From Vermamoeba vermiformis (taxonomy: Eukaryota), in assembly GCA_045837725.1 (NCBI GenBank), contig JBEWZL010000179.1, forward strand, positions 558,001 through 622,000: a stretch of DNA of 64,000 nt, given 5' to 3'. The notes under the pieces were generated by a model, which made no database searches, was not told the DNA's origin, and was given only the letters and a program-made list of their open reading frames with translations. This document shows positions 10,201 through 49,852 of this stretch, in pieces. The translations under genes and the position numbers were made by a program. How positions within the stretch are numbered: the stretch's first letter is position 1; each line of letters opens with the position of its first letter.

Positions 10201-12695
10201 GAGGATGAAGACGATGAAAATTCAGCTGAAATGCGCAAAAAAGGCAAATTGATCGTAGCTGAAGACAGAAAGATGGGAAGGCAAGCACATCATAAGACAT
10301 TATTATGTCGCTAACGATTATTATCTTAGACTGAACTTCTCAGTGTACGGAGACTACGCCAAAGCAGGTGGAGGATTTTTATGTTTCTTGGTCTGTTTGA
10401 CTTTCTGTTTGACGCAAGGATCACGCATTGTTAGTGGTACGTCCAAATATTACTACTGTCATATATGCATACATCCCTAACGATCAATTTTAGATTGGTG
10501 GGTTTCGTACTGGATCAGAAGTACGGATCCGACTGTTCACTCTTTGGCATACTTTGTCGGTATTTCTGGAGGTCTATTAGGAGCTTTGTTAGTATCAACG
10601 ACACTAAGATCAGTTTTCTTTGCTTGGTTCACGTTAAGAGCAGCAACTAAGCTTCACAATGGAGTTTTTTGGGTACGTTTACTTACGCAATTCGAACTAT
10701 GCGGAATATTAACGGAGTTTCCTTTTATAGAAAGTCACTCGTGCGCCAATGAGTTTCTTCGATTCAACTCCGACTGGAAGAATCTTGAACAGATTTTCGA
10801 AAGATCAGGATCAGATCGACGACTTGTTGCCTGATTCGTTGCTTCAGGCCTTACAATATTTATTAATGGTGATCAGCTCGTTGATTTTGGTTTCAGTTCT
10901 ATTGCCCTGGTTCACTCTCGTCTTGCTACCGTTCTTCGCTCTCTTCTGGTTCTTTGGCGTAAGATCCACTTCAATAACTTCAATTAGTTTATGATGTATT
11001 CTAATATTTATATTATCTAGATGTATTATCAACGAAGTGCGCGTGAGTTGAAGAGATTAGATAGTGTCACACGCTCTCCTATTGTCGAACATTTGTCAGC
11101 GACGTTGCAAGGCTTGTCTACAATTCGAGCGTACAATATGTCGGAGACGTTTGAACGCATTGAAGTTGACAAGATAAATTTCAACTCGAGATTTTTCTTG
11201 GCATTTGAAATGGCAGCAAGGTAATTTAAATCAAAATTTAATATCAAAAGTATTTATTTAACAATTTGTTCAGATGGCTTGGCTGGCGGTTAGATTTTAT
11301 GAGCACGTTGGTTGTTACTTTAACGGGCATTCTTGTTATCGTATTGGCTGATACGATTTCGCCGAGTACTGCCGGTCTTGCCTTATCTTATTCATTGCAA
11401 CTCGCCGGTATTTTCCAATGGAGTGGTACGTAGAAATAATATCAATAATTGAACAATAAGAGCGTATTTTAACATGCTTTGATTCTAGTTCGTGTTGCTG
11501 TAGAGGCAGAAAGTCAAATGACTAGTGTTGAACGATTGATGTATTACACGCGCAATATTGATTCTGAAGCACCTCAAGTCATCGAAGAGAATCGTCCTCC
11601 TGAGAACTGGCCTTCTAAGGGTGAAATAGAGTACAAAGACGTACGTTTTGTAACGGAGAATTTTTGGCAGGCAAAACGTTTTGACACTCAAAATTTTTCA
11701 ACCAGGTTGAAGTTCGTTACAAAAAGACTGGCAAACCTGCTTTGACCGATCTGACTTTTGCAATTAATGCGCAAGAGAAGGTTGGCATCGTTGGACGGAC
11801 AGGTGCTGGCAAATCAACTCTTGGCATGACTTTGTTCCGCATCCTCGAACCTACTGCCGGATCCATCATCATCGATGGAATAGACATTACAACTATCGGT
11901 CTTGACGACCTAAGATCGAAGTTGGCAATCATTCCTCAAGATCCAGTGCTTTTTATTGGTTCTATTCGGAGCAACTTGGATCCGTTCAATCAGTATAGCG
12001 ATACCGACCTTTGGGACACGCTTGATAAGGTAAAATCACTGCCTATATTAACAGCAGTGTCTAATACGCCGTTTTAGGTCCATTTGAAGAAGTTGGTTGA
12101 AGAATTGCCGGGCAAGTTGGAGGCATCCGTTTCAGAAAACGGAGAAAACTTCTCAGTCGGTCAAAGACAATTACTTTGCATTGGAAGAGCTCTTGTACGC
12201 AAGCCTAAAATTTTAGTGCTCGATGAGGCGACTGCATCGATCGACATCGAAACAGATGAGCTGATCCAAAAGACGATCCGTCAAAGTTTCGCGAACTGCA
12301 CCGTGCTTACTGTGGCTCATCGTTTATACACTATCATCGATTCAGATAAGATAATGGTCATGGACAAGGGCAAGCTCGTTGAATTTGATTCGCCGAAGAA
12401 CCTGCTACAAAGCGATCAAATTTCCTTATTTGGAAAATTGATCGACCAAAGCGGATCTCAATCATCGCGATACCTCAGAGACGTTGCATTAGGCAACGCA
12501 TCTTTATTTGATAAAGAAAAGGCTGTTGAAGAACAACAAAAGACCAAGGAGGAAAATGAGCGCAAAACATCGAAGAAAGTCAAAAAGAAAAAAGAGAAGA
12601 AAAAGCGTGAGAAGAAAATAGTCGAATTGGACGATAAGAATATTGAAGAAAAAGAATTGATTAACGGTTCTAATAAGAGCAGCACCGATTCTTAA
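7261..12695 (+). CDS. ABCC/MRP-family full ABC transporter (TMD-NBD-TMD-NBD, no TMD0)
   Basis: NBD1 has [16 protein letters not shown] and [10 protein letters not shown]. The second half has [34 protein letters not shown] and LDEATASID. Many introns. Confidence 0.97.
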
Positions 12696-14856: not shown

Positions 14857-17250
14857 ATGATGCAAAAGCTGCTAGCGTCCAAAACGGATGCACTTCGCAC
14901 GATCTCTCTTGTAGTCGGAGCTTTTATGCTGCTTGGCATGGGTAAGTCTATGAAAGTATTAATTAATACAATATTAAGCTACCATAACGCATCAAAATGC
15001 AATTAGTGAAAGATCTCAAAATATGAAAAATCGCAATCTTCACCAGAATTTTCAAAAATATTTCCCATATCGTATAATACCACACAATATAATATAGTGC
15101 ATATATTATTCTGAATTATACGAATTGAAATTATTTGATCGGAATTTTAAAACCGGAACAGATCCGACGAGAAAAATACGTTTGTGAACCTGCTCTTTGA
15201 AAGCTCATACAGCATTATACTGACATTAATTTTCATCAGGCACATTATACAGCTATTCAACGTATTCGCCAGTGCTGAAAGTCCGATTAAATTATTCTGA
15301 AACTGAAACAAATGCCGTTAGCGCTGTTGGAGGCCTTGGCGCGTAAGTAAATTCATTTAATATGCTTTTTAATATGATAATAAATTATAATTTTCAAGGT
15401 ATATTGGAGCTATTCCCGTTGGATTATTTTACGATCGTTTTGGACCTCGGTGGACTTTTCTTGGCGCTGGATCTCTCATATTTAGTACGACTTAACGCAC
15501 TAATATTGATCCAAATATATACTAATAATTTATGATTATTATAGTCGGTTATTTTTCGATGTTCGCGGCACTTCAAGGCTGGATCATGCAGAGTGCTTTC
15601 TTTGTCGGACTTTATTTCTGGATCGCTAGTACGTAGAACAATCTAAAAGTAAATTAGCGATAATTAACTTATTTAAATAGTTCTTGGCAGTGTTGGTACA
15701 TTTGAAGCAGTTTTGGCTACGAACACGAAAAATTTTAAATCGCAACAACGCGGCAAAGTACGGATCCAAACACCAACGCAAAATAATATAATAATTAATT
15801 GTTATTTAGGTCGTTGGAATGACATTAGGAGCCTTTGGGTTAAGTGCTGCAGCCGTGACTCAAGTCTTCAAATTTTTCTTCGCAGAGAACGAGAACATTG
15901 ACGGATTTTTGCTGTTTTTGAGCATCGCTTTGGCCTCACTTTCCTATTTAGGAATGTTGGCTGTTCGACACGTAAGTTTCGTCTGTGAAAAAATTATAAG
16001 TGACACGTGTCAAGTTGCAACAACTAACGCGCATCATTTTGTTAGCTCCCGCCTGAAGAAAATAAACCACAAAGTAAATCTTTGCCAAAATTTAACGCAA
16101 GATGACTAACCTAACATTTCCCTTTTTTAGAAATGGTGAGGACGAAGTTGGACTCTGATTCAGACGAGATGCTCGATGAAGATGAGCTGTTATTTGAATA
16201 TGACGACGAGACGACAGCACTCGACGATGAAAATTCCAATTTAGGAAGTCAAATCAACAGACCCAAATTCGGCGACTTGACTGGACTTTCATTGATCAAA
16301 GAACCACAATTCTTCGTGCTATGGATCACTGTATTCTTTATTGGAGGTGTAAGTGGCACTCAGACCACGCTAATATGGAAATATTCCTAATATGGTAATA
16401 TCTTATCAGGCTGGCTTGTCGTTTTTGAACGTGTTAGGCGGGGTTGTAAAATCTTGGCAAATTACAACTTTAAACCGCTCAACTTACGTTATAATATCAT
16501 CATTAGCCAATTTTTGCGGTCGTTTAGTATTTGGAAGCTGCGTTGATTTTGTGTAAGCTCCGATCTAAATCCACATCCGAGTCAATTTTTTTTGAATTAA
16601 CGAGCCAATTTATTATATAGGCGTACAAGAGGCATTCCAACTATTATATTGTTGATACCAGTAGCGTTGATTATGGCTGTTTTCCAACTGATGATGGCTT
16701 TCATTACGAATTGGTTCTTGTTGGTCGTCGCTACTTTCGGCATCACGTTTGCATACGGAGGTAAATTCAGCCTAATAACTATGATACGATTAGTACTAAC
16801 TCGACACCTAGGAATGTTTGCCGTGTATATTTATTGTATCAATAGTTACTTTGGCGACAAACATTATGCGCAAAACGTTGGTTGGCTCGGTACGTAAAAT
16901 TTCACTGGAATCTATTACTTTCTTATCGTTCTAATGCACATGTAGTGTTATTATGCACATAATAATTAATTTTATTGCGTTTAGGTGTTGCAGTTGGTAG
17001 CGGAGGATTTTTGTTGAGTTTTATTGCTGGTAGATTGTACGACAACAACGTGCCCGTAGAAAATCAATCAACGCATCAATGCTTTGGTCAAGTGTGCTAC
17101 ATGTACGGATTTATCATTACAGCGGTGTGTTGCTTGTTCCCAATTGCACTTGTGGTGTTCTTGTCAAGGCGTGAACGAGAAAAAGATCAATTCAGACAAA
17201 AGCTCGAAGTGTTTTCATTCACAAGAGTATTTAATATTAATTCTAATTAA
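14857..17250 (+). CDS. MFS transporter, nodulin-like/Mch1-type; intact copy
   Basis: GTLYSYSTYSPVLK..., GAIPVGLFYDRFGPR (MFS motif A-like), NFCGRLVFG and AGRLYD, plus many hydrophobic helices across about 12 exons. Confidence 0.9.
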
Positions 17251-17290
17251 ACTAAAGTAAAAACAACAAAAATGAGATTATTCTACCATT

Positions 17291-19937
17291 TCAAACTTGT
17301 TTTTGCACAACTGTTTCCTCAGGAGTGAATTCTGCATCTTGGAAAACTGGTGCAAAACCAAAGTACGACTGATATATGGGTGACACTATTGCACTTGCTT
17401 CCAATACACTGGCACGCTTGGTCATTTCCTCAGCCTCTGTCTTAGCGTCTTCTGCACTTTTCTTTTGGGTCAATATCTCTAGCACTGCTTCAACTGCCTT
17501 CTCCATTTCCACTTGTTGTGCCTCTGTTCTACTTGACAGTCTAACAAGCTCAAGTTGTGGAATAAAGGCTGTAAGTTCACTTAAATTTGGTTGTTTTGCC
17601 TTGTCCACAGCAGAAATCATAGCGTCGTGGAGCCCCTGCATAAATGAATAATGGCACTCCAAATTATTAATTAACATACCTGTGCAGTTTCAGGCACTAC
17701 AGAAGCTAACCCAATAAAGTAGAAATTTGGAGCTTTGAGGACAGTCAATGCATTGTTTGCAACCTTGGGCCCATTGAACTTTGATACATCAGTTAACTGA
17801 ATACAAAAATCAATATCATACCTTTCCTTTGTTTTGTTTGGCCTGGAATCCAATAAAAATATCTTGACCATTCAGTTTGGCAGGCAACACTATGTCTGCA
17901 AATTCAGATGACTTCCCATCAATTGTGATGACTTGCTTCTCCCCAATTTCTTTAAGAAGGGCAGTGTTAGCAGTACTAAGTTGCTCAGTTAGCACTACTA
18001 CACCGTTCAGAACCACCTGCATTGTAAATGAGTGTTTGCAGTAAGTCTAATTAACTCCTACCTTAGCAGTTTGAAGTTCGGCAGGCAAATTGGTGCAATT
18101 GAAAATATCTCTCAGTTCAACCTCTGTACTTCCTTCACTCACCAACTTGTATCTTGCGTAAATACTTGCAGCTGCTGCATGCTCAAAGCATTTGCCTTTG
18201 ATGTTACCATCTTCAACTGAGCAGTTGGTATGCAGAATTAGTGTGCTTAGTGAAATATCAAATGGTTTCCAATGCTTAGAAGTCACAGTAGTTTGTAACA
18301 GAGCCAGGGGCTTGAAAACATCATTGTAGGAGTAAAGAAAGGGTCGAGTGTACTTCTTTGTATTTTCATCAATTTTAGTCCACTGAGTCAGATAGCCTTC
18401 TTCTTCCAAAATTTGTGGTTCCAAATCTATATCAGAAATCTTTTCTTTGATTTTCATTTGCCAACAAAGTGCTGCTTTAATGTCCAGTAGTTCAATTGCT
18501 TGCTCAATCCTCTTTTGTTCTTCTGCACTCGTGCAATTTTTCAATTTGTCATTTAACAAATCTGAGGATGTGGCACTGGGGAAGAGACCTTCAAGTCTGG
18601 CTTCTAAAGAAGCTGAAACGTCTTTCAGTTCTCGTTCAAGGTCGTCTAATACAAATAATTGTCTTGTTGATGTAGAAATTGCATTCTTTGTGCTATGGTA
18701 ATCCTCCAGCTTAATGAGATACGCAAGGGCAACTTCCATCATAATTTCAATTCCTCGTGGTAAACCAAAAGCTCTGTAAAATAGCTTCACAAGAGTTTTA
18801 GCTGTTTGATCATGCAAGACATCTGCCTGAGTTGAGTCTGTTGTGGGAGTCTTGAACAACGATTTGCCCAAGTACTGCTTAGCTATTACATCCAAGTATT
18901 TTGCATTAAGTAAATTCTCCATTGAGGCTCTAACTAGTTCATAGCTTGTTGCGGTTTTAGGAAAACTTCCGGGAACAATTGTGCCAGTAACCATCCAAAA
19001 AGCTGCACTATTGCTAAGTTCAAGTCTTTTTACAGCAGCATCTCTTAGCAATAAGTAAATAAGATCCTCTGTTTGTGTGCCTGCAGATCTTTTGCTGTAA
19101 TACTACCATGAAATTAATAAAGTCTGGAGAATTATTGAAACTTACTTGACACTCATCAATTCCAAAGATGAGCAGATTTCTGTCAATGCCAGATACATCA
19201 AAAGGGTACTTTGTTGGTGGTTTGCAGAATTGGTCAACACATGCATTGAATAGGTCAACACATTCACGAACTCTATCAAACTTGTCTCCAATGAATTTAG
19301 CTGTAATAGTAAATGGCTGGCCTCTGAATATGACTTGTTTATCGCTGAATCGATCAAGTATGCTGTCTTTAATCATGTCACTGATTGCTGCAAATAAAGT
19401 AAGTAGTGTTTAGCGAATTAGCTGGACTTACAGTTCTTTTCAGATAGTTGTGAAGAAGAGCTTATAATAATCATTCGTTGCATGAAAACAGTCTTGTACA
19501 ATGCATTAACAAAGGCTTGTCGATCGGTTAATGTTCCTTTTACACCCCTCCAATTGCCGGACTAAAAATTTTTCAATGATCTGAGGATCATTAAGAGCAT
19601 GATAGCTCCATTCTATCAATAATCGAGTTTTGCCACTGCCAGGGTTCATTGTTTGAACTGCATAGGCTGGTTTTTGATTAGGATCTAGGAAGTTACTGTA
19701 TGCAGCCTGCAATAGTGCCATGACGATTTCCTCTCGATTGAGAAATGGTGCACGTGTGGGCGAACCAATCCATTCATATTTGTAAGGTGACATATTCGGC
19801 AACGGGAACAGCAATTGTTTGCCGTTGATGTGAAGAGTTAGAACTTCTTGTGTTCGCAAAGAAGGAAAATCTGCGACAGTGAGCTTTTGCGCGGGTGTGT
19901 CTTGCGCTATCTCGGTCTTGTCCTGTGGAAACGCCAT
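17291..19937 (-). CDS. P-loop NTPase (STAND/Crinkler CR-NTPase-like) fused to putative PD-(D/E)xK nuclease, copy A; apparent +1 frameshift near 19545
   Basis: Walker A NPGSGKT, Walker B LLIFGIDECQ, GLPR motif. C-terminal GKCFEH...FADIVL...IGFQAK. Five GT-AG introns splice in frame. Homology to copy B requires removal of one base near the GGGG run at 19545-19548. Confidence 0.75.
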
Positions 19938-20330
19938 TTTGGAAGAGGTGAAATAAGCTGCATGAAAGATCAGCGCGTGACAAACTGGATTTCAGGCCAA
20001 CTACTTTACCTGCGGTCGGAGGTTTGTTCCGTAGAGATTTACGTGCAATTAAAGGTTTATTAATGATCTGGGTGCCTGATAAAATATATTATTACAATAA
20101 AAATAATATTTGAATAGTTAGATATAAAATTAAATTAATTAATTCATCCGCGCTATCTTTGGATTTAAATTCTATCGCAAAAAATTAACCTATATTTGTT
20201 GAACCCAAATTATTGGTTTGCAAATGCAAATATCAAGAGTCTTACCTAATCCGAACACCTTCGCCGGCGAGAGAGGCCTCTTGGTGAGGCCAGTCTTGAT
20301 TATCGAGGACAAAAAATGCCTAAGCATAAG

Positions 20331-22128
20331 TTACTCGGACTGCTGAGGTGTGGTAGTGAGCTCACTCGTATTTGAATACAAATTACAAGCGGGGATCAGC
20401 TCGGTCAGTTCCCAAACGACAATAGAGCCCTTAATAGTACCAGCGACTACGTACTTCTCATCGTGCGAGATATCAGCTTGGTTAACTATCTCATTGGGAC
20501 CTTCGAGCTGATCCACAACGGCGGATGTGTCCGGGTTGATCAGCGTTACAGTAGGACTGCCGTGAATCAACGAAGCTACCAATCCGCTCTTTGACTATAA
20601 TATAAGTATTAGTACCATAATTAGCAATGGCATTAGTTTTTGAAAACGTTCAAACGAGATCCAAGATCGTTTCAAAATTTCGAATTGTTTCTTACCATAG
20701 ATCCTGTCATGGAATAGGTTTGATTGAAAAATGATACTTTAAAGGGCTCTAAATTAGAATATGATAGCTTCTTAATCTGATTATCGTTCGTATTGAGCCA
20801 AACGGTCTTGTGCTCGGTGTCCATAATAAAATTCATTAACGGACAGTTCGTAGTCAATTTCTTTGCCTTCATTAAATTGAAATTAAATTCTGGCGGCAAA
20901 TTCTTGTACCTAACCATTAACGACCATTAGTACAATTCAATTCGTCGGATCACATCCAAAAAGCATTAAAAAATTGCCGAATAGCTTGTACGAAACAAAT
21001 ATTATAAAAAACTGGTGCATTGATACAATGTTTTCAATTAATAAATTAAAATCATTAAAATCTGTAGAAATGTTTTTCGTTCTTACGCGCATCTGGCCGA
21101 CGCAATCACCGGTCAACAAATACCCATCATCGCCGACTTCAATCGTGCTAATAGAGTTACAAGGGTGTTCTTTCTCGCTCCACGAATCATCGTCTTCTTC
21201 AGTCTTCGTGCGGCGGAAGTGCTTTTGAATTATGTTACCGCATGAAACCGGATGCAGTTGATGCCAGTGCCGAGTTTATAAGAGGTAATTTTCTTTTGTT
21301 GTGCAACATTCCACAATCGAATGATATTGTCTTTGCCACACATAAGCAAATGGTCCTTATTGAACGACCTAGCAACGAGGGTCAGATCCAGATCTTGCAT
21401 CTTCCGTATCATTAGGATTATATCTCAACGTACCAATCAAAGTCCACTATTCCGTTCTTATGCGCATTCAAAGTGAATTTGACTTCATTTGTCGCGCAGT
21501 CGTACAGCATCAAATTGCCGTCGTTGGATGCACACGTCACCACCTAAAATCACATTAGTCACACTACCACATTACACATGCAATATTATGTGATTAAAAT
21601 CCAAAATATTACAATAGCTTTGTTAGTACGGTACTATAATCATAACGTGACCACGCGATATCTATTAGATGTGGAGACTAACTTACGGAGGTAGATCCGG
21701 GCAAAAATCTGACGTTGGTGACGTAAGATTTGAACGGCTGGCTCATCTTGACCATGACGTAGCTATTCATGCATTTCATATTAATCACGGTTTATACGAA
21801 CTAATGCTAGACTTACGTCTTTTTAGGCGTTATTTCATCGGATTTTTGCGGAGATAAATTTATCGGTGTTGTGATAAATTAACGGGCGTTGTTTCGGCAC
21901 TTGTTTTCAAATTACCATTTGGTAATACTGATTCTTTGATAATAAGTGTATCCTTGTTATTATAATTGTTGGCTTCGATATTCGTTGATTTTGTTAAGTA
22001 TTCTCTGGAAGACGTTTTGGTGACCGCACCATTTTAATTTCTGTCGCAGCTTCTTTTGGCTTGTCTTCGAATTTATATTATTTTCTTTTTTATGATCGTC
22101 TTCATTAGTTGTTTCGAGATCTGCTTCA
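20331..22128 (-). pseudogene. Decayed copy of the WDR13-like WD40 gene
   Basis: Near-identical peptides to 28206-30788, but it lacks the MNNNQFIIGD...VIL segment (deletion near 21220) and the 5' end is deleted. Confidence 0.85.
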
Positions 22129-23580
22129 ATTCTGTTCAACGCATCATCGCGGATCGTCTCAGCGCGACCGACACAAATATCACGTGACATTGTCGTGAAG
22201 TCCCACGCAAGTTGAAGTTGTTTGCGTGCAAATCCTCTATTTGCCAAAATAGGAAATATTGATTCGTCGAATTGTTGTCATCGCCGTCTCGTAACTTTTT
22301 GAATTGGTCAGAGGCCTCGATGAGATCGCCTGATTGGCAAATAAATTTCTAATGCCGACTACGTATCTCGTAGCCCAATCTAAAGGCACTGCAGGTTGAA
22401 TCACGAGCAACGGATCGACTGGATCGTGCGCACCCACTTCGGCCCAGTGCGGAATTTTTTCACCAGCCCTTGCGTTAATGATCACAGTAGCGGCTAAATA
22501 TACGCCAGTATCGGTCCATCCATTTGAACTGATGTCGTTGAACTTGGCCAACAACCGACTCATCACGCTGAACCCATCAAGTTCGTTCCAATACTGCATG
22601 TTCCAACTCCCTCCGCCTTTGATGGGAGGCATTCTATCAGCAGGTAGTGCCAGCCTTAATCCAGTGGCACTCGTTTGGTCTTGTATAGTGTAATCGTCGG
22701 ACGGCCACGGCAGCGCCAAGTTGCTCTCGGGCGGGTTCCAATCCGGCACCATCAGCAAGGCAATCAAGCTCACGAGGAGTAGAACCAATGCTGCTACTGC
22801 TAACACGATGAATCCAAATTGAACAGCTATTATTCCGCGCGATTTTTGATCGATGCTGTCGTCATTAGCGTAAAGTGAAATGATCGGTGAGATCCGCAGC
22901 GTGTACACGATCAAAACAGCCAAAGCTATCAAAATATTATAAGAATGATCGTTAATAGATATTATGCAACTTACCTATTTGAATAATAACGGCTATAACA
23001 GAGAATGCAATATAAGTTTGGATTGTTCGCCACATCCACTCCCAATCTTCGTTAACTTCGCCCGATGGCTCAACAAAGAATCCCTGAGAGTATTGTTATC
23101 ATATATCACGTATATCCGTTTGTATTTGCATACCTTTAATTGGCTGGGAACGTACCACATGACTACAATATTAATAATACAAATGAATAGATCGCGGCCA
23201 AAACATGGCCTGACATGCGATGACGCATAAACACAAACCTAAATAATTGATTAATATAATGCTATTATTTATGATAGTTTACTTACCAAGGCACGCAAAG
23301 GTGCAGTTTAAAAATAGTTCGAGGGTCATTTTCATTTCTTTTAAATAACGCGTTTTAATGTTAAAAATAGCATTAAAATATCTCAATATGCATAAATAAC
23401 TTACTGATATTTTTTTTAATTTAGTTTGTCGCGCTAGCAAGTCTGACGAAATGATCAGATCGTCTTCTTCGACTCCAACATCAAAATCATTGTAGTCCTC
23501 CGGCAAATCTTAAAGAGCTCGATGTCTTCATCTTCCTCATGGAAGGTGTAGCTCATTCGTGCAGTCGTTGTGCAGCATCT
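22124..23580 (-). pseudogene. Truncated copy of the membrane-anchored hydrolase gene
   Basis: Matches 33016-34660 with internal deletions and frameshifts (~22240-22340, ~23320). The whole catalytic half is missing. Confidence 0.88.
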
Positions 23581-23854
23581 GCGACGTCAAAAAATAGTAA
23601 AACTTACGCGACAATTTTCAATAACACCATTGTGTGAGGAACACAAACCAAGAAAGGTTAGGCGTAATGTGTGGCTAGCCTCACTTGTACTTAACTATGA
23701 CGAATTGAACGACTAAACGGTTACTTTCGGTTGTAAATTTTAGATCTGCTCTAATTTCCCAGGTAGACTATCGTCGACTGCTACTAGACAAGGCTCGACA
23801 CAGCAAATATTTTAAATTATTTATTAATTTAATTTTTTTGTCTTCTTTAGTTTA

Positions 23855-24937
23855 ACACGGTGCTGTTGGAGGTCTTGGCGGTAAATTCATTTAATCAGCT
23901 TTGGTAAGTTAAATCATTTAATATAGTTAATCTTATAATTTTCAAGGTATATTGGAGCTATTCCCGTTGGATTATTTTCCGATCGTTTTGGACCTCGGTG
24001 GACTTTTCTTGGCGCTGGATCTCTCATATTTAGTACGACTTAACGCACTCATACTGATCCAAATATACTAAGGATTAATAATTGCTATAGTCGGTTATTT
24101 TTCGATGTTCGCGGCCCTTCAAGGCTGGATCATGCAAAGCGATTTCTTTGTCGGACTTTATTTCTGGATCGCAAGTACGTAGAAACAATTCAAATTAAAT
24201 TAGCGTGCAATTAACTTATTTAAATAGTTCTTGGCATTATTGGTTCATTTGAAGCAGTTTTGGCGACAAACACGAAAAATTTTAAATCGCAACAAAATTA
24301 CAACTTTGAACCGCTCAACCTATGTTATAATATCATCATTAGCCAATTTTTGTGGTCGATTAGTATTTGGAAGCTGCGTTGATTTTGTGTAAGTTCCGAT
24401 CTAAATCCACATCCGAAACAATAATTTTTGGCATCACGTTTGCTTACGGAGGTAAATATAACGTCATAAATACTATATGATTAGTATTAACTCGAATCTA
24501 GGAATGTTTGCGGTCTATATTTACTGCATTAATAGTTATTTTGGCGACAAACATTACACACAAAACGTGGGTTGGCTTGGTACGTAAAAACTCATTCCAG
24601 GAATTACGCATTGAAATATTAATACTATATGAGATGCATAGGTAATTATTGACGTTTTTTGTTGTCTTTAGGTGTTGCAGTTGGTAGCGGAGGATTTTTG
24701 TTAAGTTTTATTGTGGGACAATTGTACGACAACAACGTGCCTGGAGAAAACGAATCAACACATCAAAGCTTCGGCCAAGTGTGTTACATGTACGGATTTA
24801 TCATCACAGCAGTGTGCTGCTTGTTCCCAATTGCACTCATAGTCTTCTTGTCCAAGCGTGAACGAGAAAAAGATCAATTCAGACAGAAACTCGAAGTCTA
24901 TTCATTCACAAGAGTATTTAATATTAATTCAAATTAA
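23855..24937 (+). pseudogene. 5'-truncated, internally deleted copy of the MFS transporter
   Basis: Starts mid-exon 2. Jumps from the equivalent of 15748 to 16458 at ~24295, and from ~16580 to ~16738 at ~24420. Confidence 0.9.
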
Positions 24938-24957
24938 AAGCAAAGGAGCATCTCCAA

Positions 24958-27704
24958 TTACTTATTGGACTTCTTTGAGTGTAAAGCTTCCTTCTCCTGA
25001 CTAACCCTGGCTGAACAACCAAGCTCCTTGTCTCCAAAAGCAGATGCAAATCCAAAGTAGGTTTGGTAAATTGGGGATAAAATGTCTTTTGCAGACAAGA
25101 TACTGACTCGTTTGGTCATTTCTCTCACTGCCTTCTCTGCTTCAGCCGTGCTTTGTTTTGGTTCTAGTTTCTCAACTAAATTTACCAGCTCCTCACACAA
25201 TGGGATAAGCTTTTCTAGGTCGTGCATTGCTGATTTCATTGCTGTTTGCAGGTCTTGCAGTTCCACTTCAATTTTGTCTAATGGAAGAGCAGCCCTCGCC
25301 TTGGCTTGTTTTTTTGCAATTGTGATCATTTTTGCATGTACCTAGGATGGAGATTAGGCTGGTAACAGTGTCTGATCTGAATTCTTACTGTTGCTGCGCT
25401 TTGAGGTACAACTTCTAACCCTACAAAGTAGAAGTTTGGAATTTGAAGAACAACCAAAGCATTCTCAGCAGCTTTCATCAAGTTGAGCTTGAATTTCATT
25501 AGACTATAATAACAAAACTAATGACATACTGATCCTTTGCTTTGTTTTGTATGGAAACCAATAAAGATGTCACTGCCATCCATCTTTGCAGGCATGAGTA
25601 CATCAGCAAACTTAGATGATTGTTCATCAATGGCAATAACTTGTTTTTTTGCAGTTTCTTGCAAGATTGCTGCTGAATTGCCATTGAATTGCTGCTTCAG
25701 TACAACTACTCCCTTTAAAGTCACCTGAAACTCAATCAGACATTTCAAACATGCCAAGGGCTATTGGACTCTATGCTTACCTTAGCAGTGTGAAGCTCTG
25801 CAGGTAAAGTCTTGCAATCAAAAATGTTCTGCAATTCAACTTCAGAAGTACTATCTGCCTGGCTTGCCAAAATGTAGCATGCATAAATACTTGCTGCTAT
25901 TGCATGTATAAAACTTCTGCCTCTAGTCTTGCTGTTGTCAAGAACATTTGAGCAAAGGGGATGAATAGTGAGCATGCTATATGAGATATCAAATGGCTCC
26001 CAATGTTCAGAGTGCACTGTGCTCTGCAACAGTGACAAGGGTTTGGTTGCATCTACATGTGAGTGCAGAAATGGTCTGGTGTACTGCTTTTTGTTCTCAT
26101 TAATCTTTGCCCACTGAATTAAGTACCCTCTTTCTTCTAATACTTGAGGTGCCACTTCAAGATGGGGGAGGTTTTCTTTGATATCAAGTGGCAAACAAAA
26201 CGCTGCTTTAATGTCCAAAAGTTCAAGTGCTTGGGATACCAGCTTTTTTTCTTCTGCGGTGCATCTTTGCATTCTGGCCTCAATTTCAGGAGTAGTTGCA
26301 GAATGTGGGAATTCTTTGGCCAGTCCTTCATCCAATGTGTTTGAAATTCCTTTTAGGTAATTTTTCACCTTTTCAGGATAAACATCAGTACAGTTAAGCC
26401 ATTTGTTCATTGAGTAGATTTTCTCTATGTCCACCAGGCCTTTGTATGCAACTTGCAATAAAATCTCTATTCCTCTTGGTACACCAAAAGCTTGATAGAA
26501 CAGTCCAATGAGGATTTTGGCTGTTTGTTTGTGTAGGGCACTAGTACATTGAAGTGATTAATTTAACATACAAGTAAAAAGTTGTTACCTTGAAGTAGAG
26601 CTTTGTACTTCTGTATTTGGTAAGCATTTGCCAAAATATTGTTCTGCAATGGTGTTCAAGCAAGTTGCAGAGAGCAGATTCTCCATTGAAGCTTTGATCA
26701 AGTGGTAACTGCTTCCCTTGTCTTCATATCTCCCTGGTACAATTGTACCAGTTACAAGCCAAAAATAGCTGGAGTTTCTAAGTTCTATTCTTGCTGTAGC
26801 AGCAGAGCTCAGTACCTTGTAAATAAAGTCATCTTCTTTGGTGTCAGCTTTGGATTTGTTACTGCAAACCTGCCAAACATAGTTAGATGAGTATTGGAGT
26901 GATTTGATTACTTGGCATTCATCCAGACCAAAGATGAGCAGCCTCCTTTCAACTGTATCAACTTCAAATGGATACTCTGTTGGTGGATCACAGAACTTGT
27001 CAACTAGAGCACCAAATAGATCAATAAACTCTGCTACACTGCCAATAAAGCTATTCTTCCAGGCTGTGTTGATTTTGAGTGTTTTTGCTTTGAAAGAGAC
27101 TTTTTCATTTGCAAATCTAGCCATTATATTGTGTTTAATGATTGCCTTAAGGACTAACAAGGATAAGCATGCAAACCCTCAGTGGTGGGAACTTACTTTC
27201 ACTTGGATCTGACTCAACTGGCAAGTTTTCTGCATTCATGATCAGGATTTGTTGCATGAAAGCTGTTTTGTACAAGGCATTGATAAAGACTTTTCGATTC
27301 AATTCTGTTCCATCAACATTGCCTGCCAATAAAAACTCTTGAACAATCTCAGGATCATTGAGAGCATGGTAGATCCATTCTATCATGAGACGAGACTTTC
27401 CACTGCCTGGATGCATAGTTTGAACTGCATAAGTTGGCTTCTTATTAGGCTGGGAAAAATTGTCGTATGCAGCTTGCAACATTGCTGAAAGAATTTGCTT
27501 TCTGTTGAGAAATGGTGCGCGCTCTGAAGATCCAGTCCATGTTGCTTGAGCATCAGTGCTCATGTCTGGCAAAGGGAATGGCAAAATCTTATTGTTGATT
27601 TTAAGCTGAAGGACCGTTTTGGTTTGAAGGTAACGAAAATCCTCAGGTTTTTTCATTTGCAGTTTTATGTCTTGGCTTCTTTTAGAAACCGTTGGAGCTG
27701 CCAT
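24958..27704 (-). CDS. P-loop NTPase + nuclease-like protein, copy B; reading frame intact
   Basis: Walker A HPGSGKS, Walker B LLIFGLDECQ, GVPR. C-terminal GRSFIH...FADVLM...IGFHTK. Six introns, five at positions comparable to copy A. Confidence 0.8.
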
Positions 27705-28205
27705 TGTTTGCCTCGTAATTTTTGCAGACGTGAAATAGCCTTTTGGGAACGTTAATTTTTTTAATGTCTGAATCCCATCGTAATCTTACCTGGGCAATGC
27801 GTAGCTCTTTCGTTCAATTTTAGCAACGGGGGAACTCCTAGATTTAATTATTAACCCACGAAAAAGAGATCGAATAATTTTTTTATCTCTTTATAAATTA
27901 TTTTAGTTCTACGTTATAGAAAAAACAAATGGTCGATCGGCGCTTCTATTATTCTTTAACGAGTTTTAAACAAAATCTTACCAAACGCTTTTTTCATTGT
28001 CGACTGCAACGCCAGTTTAGCGAGCCCAGCCCTAATGGGCAATAGTACACGCCCAAGCATACCTTTTTTAAATTATTGCAATGATAAATAATTAATTGCA
28101 AGCGTTGTGTTTGTGAGTTCACAAAACGGTGCAAATAAAACAGATCTCGAGAACGAAAATTTTGTAATCAAGATTATCGCGCGTGGTCGCGGTAAAAGTT
28201 TATGA

Positions 28206-30788
28206 TTATGAAAGACTATTAACAAGAGTTTGTAAATCGTTTTGAATTGATCGTCGTTTTTTGCTGGGCGAATGCGGCTCCGGAGTTTGCTCGGTTAGCT
28301 CCCAAACGACAATAGAGCCCTTAATAGTACCAGCTACTACATACTTCTCATCGTATGATATGTCAGCTTGGTTAACTATCTCGTTAGGACCTTCGAGCTG
28401 ATCCACAACGGCGGATGTGTCCGGGTTGATGAGCGTTACAGTTGGACTGCCGTGAATTAATGAAGCAACTAAACCGCTCTTAGACTATAATACGATCAAC
28501 ATTAGAAAAATAGGGTAACAAGATCGTCCTATTAAACAGCTCAAGCGAGATCCATTATCGATTTCTAAATTAGGAAAAAAAAGCGTACCATAGATCCGGT
28601 CATGGAGTAAGTCTGATTGAAGAACGATACTTTGAAGGGCTCTAAATTAGAATATGACAGCTTCTTAATCTGATTATCGTTCGTATTGAGCCAGACGGTC
28701 TTGTGCTCCGTGTCCATAATAAAATTCATTAGCGGACAATTCGTATTCAATTTCTTCGCTTTCATCAAATTAAAATTAAATTCCGGTGGCAAACTCTTGT
28801 ATACCTAATATTAAAAAGCTTGGTCAGTCACGAAAATTCCGGATCACATCCAATATTTTTTTGTAAAACCGATAATAGTGCTTTGTAAGAGCTACTAAAA
28901 TGTATATAATATTAATGTAAATATTTACATTAATATCCGATGCAAAATAAATGTGTATTTTAAACCAAGAAAAGAAGATCTACTTACGCGCATCTGGCCG
29001 ACGCAATCGCCAGTCAACAAATACCCATCATCTCCAACCTCAATAGTGCTAATTGAGTTAGTGACAGGATGTTCTTCTTCACTCCACGAATCATTGTCCT
29101 CGGAGCTCGAGTCCTCGTGCGGAGGAAATTCCAAGATGACACTGCGAGCATTGCTGATATTATTTACATGTATGCTGCCCTTAGCGTCGCCAATGATGAA
29201 TTGATTGTTGTTCATCTGCAAATGCAATAAATGCAAAGATTAGTACGATCACTTAAATGTGAAAATGAAGCGTAAAAAGGTTTGATTTTTCATTTTCTAT
29301 CGCCGGTCAAGTTGAGTTTTTCCATATTTAGTAAGGAAGTCAACATAAACATTATAATTATTCCTTTTTAGGAAATTATGTTTTCGTGTACGTACCGGAT
29401 GAAATCGAATGCAATTGATGCCAGTGCCGAGTTTGTACGAAGTAATTTTCTTTTGCAGCGCGACATTCCACAGTCGAATAATATTGTCTTTGCCACACGT
29501 AAGCAAATGATCCTTATTGAACGACCTACACAAACAAATAACATCACGTGTCAGATATAGATCTCGTACGTGGGGGTATTAGTAGTAGTTCAACGTACCA
29601 ATCAAAGTCTACTATTCCATTCTTATGTGCGTTCAATGTGAATTTGACTTCATTCGTCGCGCAGTCGTACAGCATCAAATTGCCGTCGTTGGATGCACAC
29701 GTCACCACCTAAAAAATCACATTAGGCATACTGCCACATTACACATGCAATATTATAAATCGTGTTAATACTATTATTATGATTAGTTATTGCGTTTCAG
29801 TTTCACTTACAGAACTCGATCCAGGTAAAAATCTGACTTTGGTGACGTAAGATTTGAACGGCTGACTCATCTTTACCATCACATAGCTGTTATTCATATT
29901 AATACTTACTGTTATATTAATATGTGTATAGTATATATTCGCTTACGTCTTTTTAGGCGTTAATTCTTCGGGTTTTTGCGGAGATAAATTTATCGGTGTT
30001 GTTTCGGCGCTGGTTTTCAGACCTCCATTTGGCAGATCAGTATCTTTGATAATTAATGAGTCCTTATGACCGTTGTTGTTATTATTATTGGCTTCTATAT
30101 TTCTTGATTTCGCTAAGTGTTCTTTTGACGAAGTTTTTGTGACTTGATCTGGCCGCACAATTGTAATTTCTGGCGCAGCTTCTTTTGGCTTATCTTCCGA
30201 TGGTTTATCTTCGAGCTCGGCATTATTTTTATCAATTTTATCTTCTTCATTATTTGCGTCGAGATTTGCTTCAGTTTTCGTGGTTTGATCTGGCTGTTCG
30301 GATTCACCAGAATTATCTTTGTTAGCTTCACCTGAGTTTCCAAGTGGCTCTATAGATCCGTTCAATGATATAGTAGATAAAGAGGAGCTACTGCTAGTAT
30401 TAGAAGCAAATGAACTGCCGCTTAAGCTGAGTTCTGGATTTCGTCTTGGGCTTGTCGGATCCAAGTCTATATTTACAAAAGATGACGTAAGACTAGCCAA
30501 ATCATGAGTAGATCTATTTGGGGAGTACGGTTCAGACTCTTGAGTAGAATCCCATTCGCTGTCACTGCAGATCAATAAATTAAATTAGAAAAATTTTAAA
30601 AAAATCAATAAGATGCAATTATTGATGATTGTCATCATAAATATGCGAAGTATTAATTTTACAGGCAAACAAATATTATACACATTAATGGCGGTTAGTT
30701 CAATTAATTGAAAATTTTTAAATTTTAAATAATGTTGATATTATGCCTTTAATATCGACTCAAATTACCTATCCTCGTCGCTATACAT
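28206..30788 (-). CDS. WD40-repeat protein resembling WDR13, with acidic/Ser-rich N-terminus; intact copy
   Basis: HKNGIVDFDWSFNKDHLLTCGKDNIIRLWNV, CIRFHPMNNNQFIIGDAKGSIHVNNIS and a terminal VVAGTIKGSIVVWE repeat resemble WDR13 as recalled. Start MYSDEDS at 30788. Confidence 0.8.
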
Positions 30789-31279: not shown

Positions 31280-34200
31280 TTAATATTTTTCGGGACATTT
31301 TTCTCGCACGCAAGGTCCATTAGAGCAATATTGTCTTATTATTCCTTCTTTCAAAAAATCTCGGATCTGGTTTTGCACCTCAGGTTCTCTGTTCATTAAT
31401 GTTAGCATACCAATTCATTTTTATGGTCATGATTACTGTTACCTTCTCGGGCACTCGTGTGTATCGTATATTTTAGGTGGCGCAGTATTATTGAACGGTT
31501 CCCAAGGTACATTTTCGTAGCGCCACTGAGCGATGCCAGATCCGTAGAAATCTCCTTTATGCTCTAAATATTACCGTATTAGAAAATTATATGGTACAGA
31601 GGGCTCCTTTAAATCATACCAGGCACACCAAATATAGGTCTAACTTGAGGACCGACATTGGATGCGTTGTACGCACGCGCCATTATTTCAGCGCCCAAAT
31701 AGGATACTTGCGCATCGCCGAAGGCCACTAAGCAAGTTAATATTAGATGATATAGACTATTTTAGCCCAAAAGATGCTTACTTTGTAACAAGATCTGTTT
31801 CTGAGCCATGCCAGGTGGAGGGTTTGTAATAGAGCTCATCCAACCAGAAGGCTCGCCTTGGTCCCATAATGGCTGCATCAGAGCTATAACGACTAATTGG
31901 TGCGTCCAAGTATAGAATTGATAGCTCAAGAGCTGTTGGTACCGCGTAAAGTCGACGGATCGAGGTAAAAGAACGGAGTAAGGGCCACCAGGAACGCCTA
32001 GTAATATATATATTAATAATGTACACGATAAATAACATCGATTTAAGACGATTTGTAACAGAATTTAATTTTGATGTGGATTTGCTTACCTAAAACACCG
32101 CGCTTCAAGTCTCGTGAACTTGCGAAATAAGCGGCACCAACAATACCACCCTGCGAGTTACCATAATATCCTACCGGCGTATCTTTCGAAATCAACGGTA
32201 CGTTGGCCATGTACAGCGCTGAGTCTTTGGCGAGCATCTCTTTCATGAATCGCAACATGACTGATTTGAATACAAAGCCTTGCAACGTCATTTCAGGCAG
32301 CGAAACAAAATTAGACATGTCGCTCATCAGCCACTTGGCGACGATAGGCACGTCGTGTTTTGCCATGCCGTACCAGTCCATCGCTAACAGGACGTAATTG
32401 TAGTTGTTGGAAATACGTCGTAAATGACGCGTCATTGCCTCGGAGCGACTTCCTAAAAAGGAAAAAATTGATCAGATCCCGTTCAAATTTTGCATTTTCA
32501 TTTTTATCTAAAAGTAATTTTATGCCTTAATATTTGCTAATATTTTTAGGAATTAGGCATTCAGAGAAACAAAGATTTTTAGGAAATTTCATATACGCGT
32601 ACCGAACAAGCCGTGGCCATACTGCAAGATCATTTCCGCTGGTTTGTTGCTGAGTTTCAACGAGCACGGCACACGAATCAAAAACTGCGCTTTTTTCGTG
32701 AACAACGGCTCTAACTTGGTAACTCGCTTGCCATCGACACGCGGCAGAATTGAACCGCGCTCCATACTTGACAAATAATACGGTGCATTGATTTCACCTA
32801 ATCAAATTAGAATATTAATAATTTGATTATGAGCTAAAACCAAGCTATTTTTCGGCGGAAAATGTTCGAATAAAAAAAAGAACTGATTTTGGTTTGAGCT
32901 CCATTTCTTAAAATAATATTTTCTTTTTGCGTACCGTGAATAGTCCTGGCCATCACATCAGTAGTATTTCCTTCGCAAGAATCTTCTTCAATCAAATGAA
33001 TTTTGTACGTCACGTCTTCAACTCTATTCAACGCATCATCGCGCATATTTTCAGCGCGACCGACGCAAATATCACGTGACATTGTGGTGAATTCCCACGC
33101 AAGTTGGAGTTGTTTGCGTGCAAATCCGCCGTTTGCCAAAATAGGAAAGACTGATTCGTCAAAGTGCTGTCGTTCAGGGGTCTTGTCACCATCGTCATCG
33201 CGCAACTTTTTGAACGCGTCACTGGCCTCAATGAGATTGCCTGATTTGGTTACTAAATTTCTGATGCCGACTACGTATCTTGTGGCCCAATCTAACGGCA
33301 CTGCAGGCAGAATGACGAGCATTGGATCGATCGTGTCATGCGCATCGACCTCGGCCCAATGCGGAATTTTTTCGCCAGTCTTTGCATTAATGATCACTGT
33401 AGTTGCATTTGCAGCCATATAAATTCCGATATCGTTCCAGGGAATTAATCCTGACGAGCTGATTTCACTGAATTTGACCAACAGCGGACTCATCACGCTG
33501 AAGCCATCAAGTTCGTTCCAATACTGCATGTTCCAGCTGCCTCCACCTTTGATGGGAGGCATTCTATCAGCAGGCAGTGCCAGTCTCAAGCCAGTAGCAC
33601 TCGTTTGGTCTTGCACGGTGTACTCGTTAGACGGCCACGGGAGTGCCAAGTTGACATCGGGCGGGTTCCAATCAGGCGCGACCATCACTAAAGCAATCAA
33701 GCTGATAAGAAACAGCACGAAAGATGCTACAGCTAGAACAGCAAATCCAAATTGAACGGCCACTACCCCGCGAGATTTCCGATCGATTTTGTCGTCATTT
33801 GCATAAATTGTGATTAACGGGGAGATTCGCAGTCTGTACACGATCAAAACAGCCAAAGCTACCTTAACATTAGGCAAAAGTAAGAATAAGGGTATATTAT
33901 ACGACATACCTATTTGTATAATAACGGCAATGATAGAGAACGCAATATAAGTTTGAAGCGTCCGCCACATCCACTCCCAATCCTCGCTAACTTCGCCTGA
34001 AGGCTCGAAAAAGAATCCCTTAATTTAATATTAGTATATCTATGCTATTACTATGTGTTTTTTCGTACCTTCAATTGGCTAGGAACGTACCACATAATTA
34101 CAATGTTATAAATACAATTTATAAATAAATAGATCGCGGCCAAAACGTGACCAGACATTCGATGACGCATAAATACAAAACCTGCATATTTAATTAATAT

Positions 34201-48012: not shown

Positions 48013-49852
48013 ATGGCTTCAAGACGACACTTACATAACCACCCTTTGGTTCGTCACAACAACGCTCAGTCGTTTTACAGCCAAGATGCATTCGGTAATT
48101 GATCATATATCACTTTTACCACGAACTATATTATTTTAATAATTTATTGCTTTTTTCCATCCTCCAATTGCAATTTTTAACGTCAGATTCAATTTCACTA
48201 ATCTGTCCCATCCACAGTTTGCAATTTGTGCAACAAGAGTTGCCGTGGAAGAGTATTTCATTGCAGTTCTTGCAATTTCGATGCCTGCCCAAGCTGCATG
48301 AGCACTCATCTGCGAAACAGTAAGTCTTGATCGAGTCCGCTTCGTAAAATTATGCCATAAAAAATAATTAATTTTCCATTACTCGAAGAAAGCAATAATT
48401 GTGCACTGAAGAGTGGTACACGTTGCTAAACCTCATATTTTTAGACGCGAAGCACGTGCATCCGTTGGCAAGATACACGACTTCTCCCTATGGTCCTAAC
48501 AAGCCTTCCATGGCCGTTTGCGACACCTGCCGCGCCACCATTAAGCACGGAGAAGAAGCTTATCATTGCGACACTTGCAGAGACTACGACAACTGCCGTA
48601 CTTGTTACAACAAGTACCAAAGTACGTACTTGCAAATTCGTTTATGACGCACTTGACATTAATACTTCGCTAGTGCCTCATCAACACCCCTTGAGATATT
48701 TCGATCGAGCACCGTACAACTCTCGCAGCTTCATCTGTGACTACTGCTCGTTCAGCTACGGCGAAACTCCTGGCTACCACTGCGATGCTTGTGGTAACTT
48801 TGACGCGTGTCCCACGTGCTACAACAAGTTCGGTAAGCAGCTACTACTATAAAGCTGATATATCGTTGACAAGCACGCGCTAACATTGTATCGTTGCAGC
48901 TACTGGCCCCTCGCCGATGCCCAATGCTTATCCCGCACCAGGTCAATACCCACCTTCGTACCCACCGACTGCAGGAGTTCCAGGAGCCTACCCTTCAAAC
49001 CCGTTGCCTGGAACGTACCCCACGCCCACACCCAGTGCGTACCCTTCGCAAGTAGTGCCACCTCCTGGTGGTCACCCTCCTGGTATCCAAGCACCTCCTC
49101 AACCAGTCAACATCAGCGTCAACTTGGCTGTAAATCAACCTCCTCAACAGCCTGGCCAGTATCCCCCTCAAACCCAACCGGGACAATACCCACCTACTCA
49201 ACCCGGCCAATACCCCTCACAACCAGGATACCCTTCTCAACCTGCACCGCTCAACTTCCCGGGCCAACCTGGTCAATACCCGCCTCAACAAGGCCACCCT
49301 CCCCAACAAGGCGGATATCCTCCTCAAACTCAACCAGGCCAATATCCTCCTCAGCAAGGTGGCTACCCTCCACAACAGCCCGGTCAATATCCTCCCAATA
49401 ATCAGCCTTTGAACTTCCCCGGTCAGCCTGGTTACCCCCCACAACAAGGCGGATATCCTCCTCAAACTCAACCGGGTCAATATCCTCCTCAACAACCGAG
49501 CTATCAAACGGGACAATACCCACAAACTCCAGGCTATCAAACACATCCACCCGGTCAATATCCGCCACAACAACCCGGTCAATATGGCGCGCAACCAGGC
49601 CAATATCCTCCTCAACAAGGTGGTTACCCTCCACAACAGCCCGGTCAATATCCTCCACAAGGTCAACCTCAGCCTGGCCAGTATCCTCCGAGCAACCAGC
49701 CATTGAATTTCCCTGGCCAACCTGGATATCCTCCACAACAAGGCGGATACCCTGCGCAACCAGGACAATACCCGCCTAATCCTCAAGGCGGCTATCCTCC
49801 ACAACAGCCTGGCCAATACCCGCCGTCTAATGGCAAGCCTACTCCGTATTAA
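48013..49852 (+). CDS. Three ZZ/DC1-like zinc fingers followed by a long Pro/Gln/Gly/Tyr low-complexity domain
   Basis: Three HxHPL...CxxC...(F/Y)HCxxC..(F/Y)DxCxxC units across exons, then ~310 aa of [14 protein letters not shown] repeats. Confidence 0.85.
49140..49830 (+). repeat. Coding imperfect tandem repeat ([14 protein letters not shown]; higher-order unit marked by PLNFPGQPG x3)
   Basis: Visible in the translation of ORF 48917-49852 and in the DNA. Confidence 0.9.

Follow-up and report, generated by a model that had tools for sequence, protein, structure and literature searches.

A methylation-type footprint of CpG loss on the bodies of two tandem genes from a nearly orphan family in Vermamoeba vermiformis

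Introduction

In the amoeba Acanthamoeba castellanii, DNMT1/DNMT3-dependent CpG methylation is reported on only 2.4% of genes (PMC12344493; PMC12210455). According to these reports, the methylated genes are silent, are marked over both promoter and body and are enriched for viral or transposable element (TE) origin, and the targets comprise silent genes, young transposons and endogenised giant-virus DNA (PMC12344493; PMC12210455). Other systems that bear on the present case are the gene-body methylation of animals and plants, the restraint of plant NLR genes by 5-methylcytosine (5mC) (PMC8452986, PMC11093987), and the Crinkler proteins, whose C-terminal "CR-toxin" module consists of nucleoside triphosphatase (NTPase), helix-turn-helix (HTH) and restriction endonuclease (REase) (Zhang et al. 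2016, in the summary given in PMC5289972). Here we describe a 64,000-nt stretch of Vermamoeba vermiformis DNA (assembly GCA_045837725.1, contig JBEWZL010000179.1, positions 558,001 to 622,000 of the forward strand; hereafter the window), in which two tandem paralogues, copies A and B, have lost most of their CpG dinucleotides. They are predicted to encode a P-loop NTPase with a putative nuclease motif. The loss probably records long-term CpG methylation of the gene bodies followed by deamination of 5mC, a reading drawn from the footprint, and the locus would then carry a methylation-type footprint on an unusual target, one rare gene family.

CpG loss in copies A and B

The core of copy B (25400-27290, 1891 nt) contains exactly the two CG dinucleotides, at 26201 and 26257, that a preliminary description of this DNA had counted, and its observed/expected ratio (o/e) for CpG is 0.028. 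The corresponding stretch of copy A (17640-19440) holds 17 CGs (o/e 0.26), the number estimated earlier, and the six CGs noted in neighbouring DNA at 12241-12300 are also there. The CpG o/e of the whole window is 1.13. TG and CA, described before as abundant, have o/e values of 1.46 and 1.51 in 25400-27290 and are in excess in both bodies. The return of CpG at the 5' ends of the genes is equally clear, with 20 CGs in 19500-20000 for copy A (o/e 0.85) and 20 in 27480-28000 for copy B (o/e 1.16).

These nominal depleted intervals are narrower than the true zones, whose approximate limits are given in Table 1. The zones coincide with the transcribed bodies of the two minus-strand paralogues, and the promoters and the first ~250 nt of coding sequence (CDS) are spared. 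With the 5' end defined as the first 250 nt of the CDS plus 400 nt upstream, the CpG o/e is 1.12-1.15 in the 5' ends and 0.09 (B) and 0.30 (A) in the gene bodies proper. At the other end of the genes, CpG loss reaches ~45 nt into the end of the convergent MFS-like exon.

Within the window only the two gene bodies show the loss, as had been claimed. All 524 control windows of 1891 nt placed outside both genes have a CpG o/e of 0.77-1.58 (median 1.23, standard deviation 0.15). CpG-free gaps have a median length of 15 nt and a 99th percentile of 100 nt window-wide, and the nine longest (161-1038 nt) all lie inside copies A and B. The conserved neighbour genes (kinase, ABC, WD40) are CpG-normal, and the lowest CpG o/e among the 19 background open reading frames (ORFs) of the window is 0.61. 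The ORF with this value (48884-49852) is Pro/Gln/Gly-rich with GYPPQQ-type repeats and 53% GC, and it stands far above A and B.

Table 1. Coordinates of the two genes, their motifs, the CpG zones and the duplicated flanks, as positions in the window; gene structures are sequence-based models.
Feature	Position	Strand	Remarks
CpG-depleted zone, copy B	24892..27600	.	13 CG in 2709 nt, o/e 0.12
CpG-depleted zone, copy A	17205..19700	.	28 CG in 2496 nt, o/e 0.31
CpG-normal 5' end, copy B	27455..28104	-	26 CG, o/e 1.15
CpG-normal 5' end, copy A	19688..20337	-	29 CG, o/e 1.12
Copy B gene	24958..27704	-	intact 836-aa protein, sole stop terminal
Copy B exons	27704-27197, 27153-26589, 26540-25781, 25724-25530, 25487-25389, 25341-24958	-	
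Copy B introns		-	five, GT-AG; 43, 48, 56, 42, 47 nt
Copy A gene	17291..19937	-	five introns at the same positions as in B; 44, 43, 45, 43, 44 nt
Copy A exons	19937-19432, 19387-19146, 19102-18062, 18016-17822, 17778-17680, 17635-17291	-	
Walker A PGSGKS, copy B	27393..27410	-	copy A: PGSGKT at 19643-19626
Walker B-like LLIFGLDECQ, copy B	26912..26941	-	copy A: 19175-19146; motif-level only
PD-(D/E)xK-like FAD..x..FIGFHTK, copy B	25545..25610	-	copy A: FAD..FIGFQAK at 17902-17837
Left duplicated flank, unit A	15385..17250	.	last exon of MFS-like gene; partner 23933-24937; CpG-normal
Right duplicated flank, unit A	20399..21870	.	exons of WD40-like gene; partner 28289-30000; CpG-normal

Mutational signature of the loss

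In 2000 resamplings, the same proteins were re-encoded according to the codon frequencies of the 19 background ORFs. For copy B, 110.3 +/- 8.1 CGs are expected (minimum 80) and 15 are observed; for the in-frame part of copy A, 99.0 +/- 7.7 are expected (minimum 73) and 24 are observed. The depletion is therefore not a matter of amino-acid or codon choice. Arginine is encoded by CGN in only 5 of the 23 codons of B, compared with 114 of 184 in the background ORFs, and NCG codons number 5 of 197 in B and 4 of 158 in A, compared with 257 of 1223 in the background. Gap lengths, control windows and codon resampling together exclude chance as the cause of the depletion.

A dinucleotide mass balance shows what took the place of the missing CpGs. 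It uses a coding-only background; a whole-window background was dropped since non-coding DNA inflated the contrast. Relative to this background the body of B has CG -88, TG +42 and CA +51, and that of A has CG -66, TG +37 and CA +34. The gain of TG and CA is strand-symmetric, roughly one-for-one with the lost CpG, and present in exons and introns. The codon tables agree with this picture (background to B/A): CCG goes from 0.21 to 0.00 and CCA from 0.25 to 0.63/0.43 for proline, GCG from 0.17 to 0.03 and GCA from 0.26 to 0.57/0.49 for alanine, and GTC from 0.27 to 0.06/0.09 and GTT from 0.30 to 0.43/0.44 for valine. Two-fold codons that are independent of CpG are used as in the neighbours (GAA 0.69/0.66/0.68; CAA 0.77/0.74/0.79). 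Codon usage is thus otherwise host-like, and the shifts, NCG to NCA and NNC to NNT, are the products expected from CpG transitions on both strands. The introns carry the same signature. The ten introns of A and B contain one CG in 455 nt (B, none in 236 nt; A, one in 219 nt), whereas seven introns of neighbouring genes that cDNA joints confirm have 19 CGs in 555 nt (Poisson P 2.9e-6).

Without any methylation, selection could also act against CpG in the genes themselves or in their pre-mRNAs, if the transcripts had to avoid a CpG-reading factor or if expression were tuned in this way. Such selection would agree with a depletion that matches the transcription unit, introns included, and not the duplicated segment, and it would leave room for the further dinucleotide oddities of these genes, in which AG, CT and GC are up and AT and TA are down. 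On the other hand, the introns lose CpG as strongly as the exons, TG and CA, the products of transition, make up for the loss, and the same mRNA retains CpG over its first ~250 nt. A CpG-sensing system is not known from protists of this kind, and we regard selection as an unlikely cause.

Tandem duplication and divergence of the cassettes

Copies A and B sit in a tandem duplication of ~8 kb, in which the flank repeat families are 83-98% identical. The cassettes, that is gene plus promoter with the depleted cores, are barely alignable, with 43-72% identity per 200-nt bin, and form a diverged segment (17281-20449 in unit A, 24971-28339 in unit B) inside conserved flanks (15385-21870 and 23933-30000). 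The A and B proteins are 48% identical, with a proportion of synonymous differences (pS) of 0.69, a proportion of nonsynonymous differences (pN) of 0.33 and a dN/dS of 0.23, whereas two flank exons compared between the units have pS 0.36 and pN 0.04. This contrast between cassette and flank resembles idiomorph-like or immune-type loci, or a homogenisation of the flanks by gene conversion.

The duplication invites comparison with repeat-induced point mutation (RIP), and a RIP-like, repeat-triggered C-to-T mutator or a targeted deaminase could in principle direct hypermutation to CpG. Apart from the duplication itself, the arrangement of one relative in a 5766-nt tandem or circular unit (see below) would suit such a mechanism. 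The duplicated flanks, however, are CpG-normal, and transitions there occur at 72 of 339 CpG positions (0.212) and at 180 of 814 non-CpG G/C positions (0.221), a ratio of 0.96. CpG in the flanks is thus not hypermutable, which argues against any regional or repeat-triggered CpG mutator. The depleted cores have diverged too far, at the identities given above, for their homology to be sensed. There is no drop in GC content (38.7% in 25400-27290, compared with 39.5%), TA o/e is lower and not higher in the depleted genes (0.57-0.65 compared with 0.80), so that there is no TpA excess, and 6 of the 13 residual CpGs of zone B stand in TCG context, i.e. TCG is not depleted. Hypermutation of this kind is accordingly quite improbable.

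Several observations concern the extent and the variation of the duplication. More paralogous ORF pairs lie downstream (22237-22974 and 32834-34024; 21860-22033 and 29943-30584), which indicates that the duplication is longer than 8 kb, with insertions in the B unit. Metagenome contigs of a related strain (run X5) join A-flank to B-flank, from 16698 to 24604 and from 20391 to 28206. These joints could represent haplotypes with a single cassette, only A or only B, and they fit equally well with an assembly that crossed at the repeat. The same strain differs from the window at 40 of 486 positions in 27141-27626, the 5' exon of copy B, and at 2-10 positions in seven other pieces of 287-426 nt, so that the N-terminal exon of copy B looks hypervariable between strains.

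The same contrast in distant relatives

A metagenome scan returned five loci of the family, namely L001 (31% identity) and the four versions L002-L005 of a single locus (28%). In L001 and in L002-L005, respectively, the 5' part has a CpG o/e of 1.11 and 1.10 and the body 0.52 and 0.51, with TG and CA raised, and the remaining 2.7 kb of the L002-L005 unit has a CpG o/e of 1.49. The recurrence of the contrast in distant homologues indicates that the depletion follows the gene family across species and not a chromosomal place. As for the organisation of these loci, the heads of L002, L004 and L005 correspond to the tail of L003, whose head in turn corresponds to their bodies (95-99%; L003 1-5417, L002 380-728), which points to a tandem array or circle with a period of 5766 nt. 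Each 5766-nt unit contains one family gene after a SAM-domain exon, and ~2.7 kb of CpG-rich sequence. The SAM-domain assignment (L003 4854-5159) has a Pfam E-value of 7e-4, which is under the curated cut-off.

Closer comparisons give modest hints that CpG hypermutability may still be active. Between copy A and a 97%-identical orthologue, P0001, three of nine amino-acid differences fall on CpG bases (P 0.012), whereas CpG-touching codons make up 18 of 315; the changes are GCG/Val, CGA/Gln and, with the G that opens the next codon, GAC/Glu. Among the single-nucleotide polymorphisms (SNPs) in the bodies of L002-L005, 19 of 95 are CpG transitions, and CpG sites represent 5.5% of sites.

Gene-body methylation as the favoured reading

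A CpG-specific, strand-symmetric loss by transitions that covers one transcription unit and recurs in homologues points to long-term 5mC and its deamination. Under gene-body methylation, each copy would have carried CpG methylation in the heritable cell lineage for a very long time, over the transcribed body with its introns, from ~250 nt past the ATG to the 3' end. The mark would have been absent from the promoter, from the initial ~250 nt of the CDS and from all neighbour genes. Spontaneous deamination of 5mC would then have converted CpG to TpG or CpA, depending on the strand, and eliminated ~90% of the expected CpGs in B and ~70% in A. In other species, members of the family would undergo the same loss, the targeting following the gene family. 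Both 5mC as the cause and host enzymes of the DNMT1/DNMT3 type are what we infer from this footprint.

A number of points weigh against this reading. Some Amoebozoa are without 5mC. The related loci amount to only two independent ones, and the comparison with P0001 comprises only nine differences. The excess of CpG transitions among the SNPs is modest and extends beyond the body, as the 5' part of L002-L005 likewise has 4 CpG transitions among 21 SNPs, with CpG at 7.6% of sites. Copy B also shows AG +48, CT +34, GC +31, AT -34 and TA -29 relative to the coding background, and only part of these shifts follows from CpG decay, though the codon tables account for most of the extra dinucleotide differences. 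Finally, the A. castellanii mark is reported to cover promoter and body of silent genes, whereas in the present genes the 5' end escapes and copy A is transcribed and spliced.

Protein family

The predicted architecture of the family consists of a P-loop NTPase, a helical middle, a PD-(D/E)xK-like motif and a coiled-coil tail. The NTPase assignment is made at motif level (PGSGK[ST] and hhhhDE), and P-G-S-G is invariant in all four aligned N-termini of the family. The nuclease is putative, the conserved FAD..FIG[FI]Q[AT]K motif being reminiscent of PD-(D/E)xK nucleases; the motif is also found in the relatives P0003 and L002 (2240-2467). Both proteins contain a conserved FG.PR.IE motif, which is reminiscent of the GxP motif of STAND proteins.

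Structure prediction and database searches place the family near no described one. The model of P0003, covering the middle and C-terminal part, has a mean predicted local distance difference test score of 70.6 and is low at the PD-(D/E)xK-like motif. VIA-align matched it to generic helical bundles only (Z<=8.3, residues 1-82), and there were no matches at E<=0.001 in BFVD or Foldseek-PDB. The best Foldseek rows, NLRP7, NAIP5-NLRC4, NLRP14, NOD2 and winged-helix proteins, are non-significant (E 0.17-5, template modelling score 0.15-0.19), and a likeness to STAND/NLR proteins is at best suggested, as a weak lead, by these models. No REase match was obtained in structure or PDB profile searches. 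Family assignment with Pfam, PADLOC, NCBIfam and PDB sequence profiles gave sub-threshold noise only, Protein Atlas scores reached 0.84-0.86, under the 0.9 level, the N-terminal profile found no longer relatives at E<=0.01, and Rfam found no RNA family in the window. Pfam detected no Crinkler ubiquitin-like (Ubl) header, and no secretion signal was found. An exhaustive HMMER scan of 1.84 billion representatives yielded 15 hits, of which one is spurious and the other 14 are unnamed fragments. From these searches the family appears very narrow, nearly orphan, fast-evolving and protist. The named relatives of the neighbouring kinase gene include Acanthamoeba and Planoprotostelium, which puts the host with amoebozoan-type protists.

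Such isolation might be expected of genes that came from a CpG-poor donor, a virus or a methylated genome, and retained its composition, as the preliminary description had also considered: the 14 credible relatives are all without a name, and Pfam, NCBIfam and PADLOC give no match. The composition of the genes speaks otherwise. They share the codon dialect of their neighbours wherever CpG is not involved, CpG is normal at the 5' end of the very same ORF, and the five short introns common to both copies are of host type and as depleted as the exons. Copies A and B are saturated at synonymous sites and yet both remain depleted, and in other organisms the 28-31% relatives differ from the genes around them in the same way. 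Scans of viral contigs with two profiles found no relatives, nor did viral structure models. Pfam detected no TE domains in the genes, although absence of hits does not rule out viral or TE ancestry. In view of the composition, a donor origin of the CpG deficit is very improbable.

Gene models and expression

The five introns of each copy occupy common positions, are 42-56 nt long with GT-AG ends and are host-like, as had been noted before. Contigs of run X8 omit 18017-18061, exactly the predicted intron 3 of copy A, and one X8 contig stops at the end of exon 4 (17822) with the first bases of exon 5, which confirms the exon 4/5 junction. Since X8 contigs also skip introns of neighbour genes, X8 represents cDNA, and copy A is transcribed and spliced. 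This is so despite an apparent 1-nt frameshift relative to B in exon 1, between 19560 and 19558: frame 0 meets a stop at 19508, and it is frame +1 that stays open over the remaining ~680 codons. The frameshift could reflect a young pseudogene or an assembly error. In exon 3 of copy A, a cDNA-like X8 contig lacks 36 nt in frame (18813-18850); the ends of the skip are not intron-like on the minus strand, and it is probably a 12-codon indel polymorphism.

No X8 cDNA contig falls within 23589-28175, the interval that holds copy B. Of the raw RNA runs, X13 contributed 29 reads to the window and X15 contributed 23, none of them on A or B; these reads are 90-99% alike and come from a diverged strain, and they carry no information on expression here. 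At the 3' side, each NTPase gene ends close to its convergent MFS-like gene, with 40 nt (17251-17290) or 20 nt (24938-24957) between their stop codons, so that the 3' untranslated regions of the two must overlap.

The transcription and splicing of copy A bear on the nature of the target. The preliminary description had likened the genes to silenced mobile or foreign DNA, and this analogy is unsupported, since copy A is transcribed and spliced and no viral or transposon relatives were found. The deamination origin proposed with it fits every indirect test run. An assembly or library artefact is scarcely conceivable as the source of the pattern, and nothing was found in its favour: stretches of both genes recur in independent assemblies (runs X5 and X8), which differ at 1-2 positions per 150-370 nt, and unrelated metagenomic loci show the same pattern.

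Comparison with described systems

With A. castellanii as reported, the present case would share an amoebozoan-type host, CpG context and the marking of a small minority of genes among unmethylated neighbours. The evidence in A. castellanii is a methylome and here it is an evolutionary footprint, and, unlike the targets described there, A and B have host introns and no viral or TE homology was found for them. The recurrence of the contrast in homologues of 28-31% identity further suggests, in a difference from A. castellanii, that targeting has been stable over very long times.

In the form of the footprint the locus is closer to the gene-body methylation of animals and plants, with a CpG-normal promoter and 5' end, a body depleted down to the 3' end and a gain of TpG and CpA. 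The animal/plant-type mark, however, is borne by a large share of genes and falls on conserved housekeeping genes with broad expression. In the present case the target would be a lineage-restricted, fast-evolving family, to judge by the dN/dS and the identity between the tandem copies, and no background ORF of the window (n=19) has such a footprint. The footprint is also sharper than in vertebrates (o/e 0.03 in the core of B).

Two further likenesses concern the kind of gene. The order suggested by the motifs, NTPase, helical (possibly winged-helix) middle and PD-(D/E)xK-like motif, recalls the Crinkler CR-toxin module as outlined in the summary cited above, and both are fast-diversifying multi-copy protist genes. 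The likeness is one of domain order; neither Ubl header nor secretion signal was found, and one relative has a SAM-domain exon. The restraint of plant NLRs by 5mC, as reported in PMC8452986 and PMC11093987, offers a parallel in that a costly NTPase conflict gene present in tandem, diverged copies is held in check, whereas kingdom, methylation contexts and protein family all differ.

What gene-body methylation would do for the host can be framed in two ways. A repressive or dosage-gating role towards a potentially self-harmful NTPase-nuclease seems somewhat more probable than a transcription-coupled gene-body mark, and a promoter kept free would leave a gated gene inducible. We tentatively add a broader proposal, which is possible but doubtful: the family may be a heritable, sequence-autonomous methylation target that behaves like an immune or selfish conflict gene, with the mark kept through speciation and on the body only. 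The tandem copies, the strong divergence of the cassettes between conserved flanks and perhaps also alternative haplotypes would give it the likeness of a conflict gene, and a mark on the body with a free promoter would mean that the product is gated, not destroyed.

Significance

At present the sparse methylomes of protists are interpreted as a defence against transposons and viral DNA. The target suggested by this locus is of another kind, a transcribed gene family that has introns and evolves under purifying selection. If a methylome confirms the mark, the locus would provide a compact, testable model of the way in which one gene family is recognised by a methylation system over evolution, and it could show whether 5mC gates a potentially self-harmful putative NTPase-nuclease. 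Maps of CpG decay could then find such targets in protists without methylome data. Should the more doubtful conflict-gene proposal be true, the family would represent, in a protist, an equivalent of immune receptors under epigenetic restraint, and 5mC mutagenesis would help to diversify the very gene under its control.

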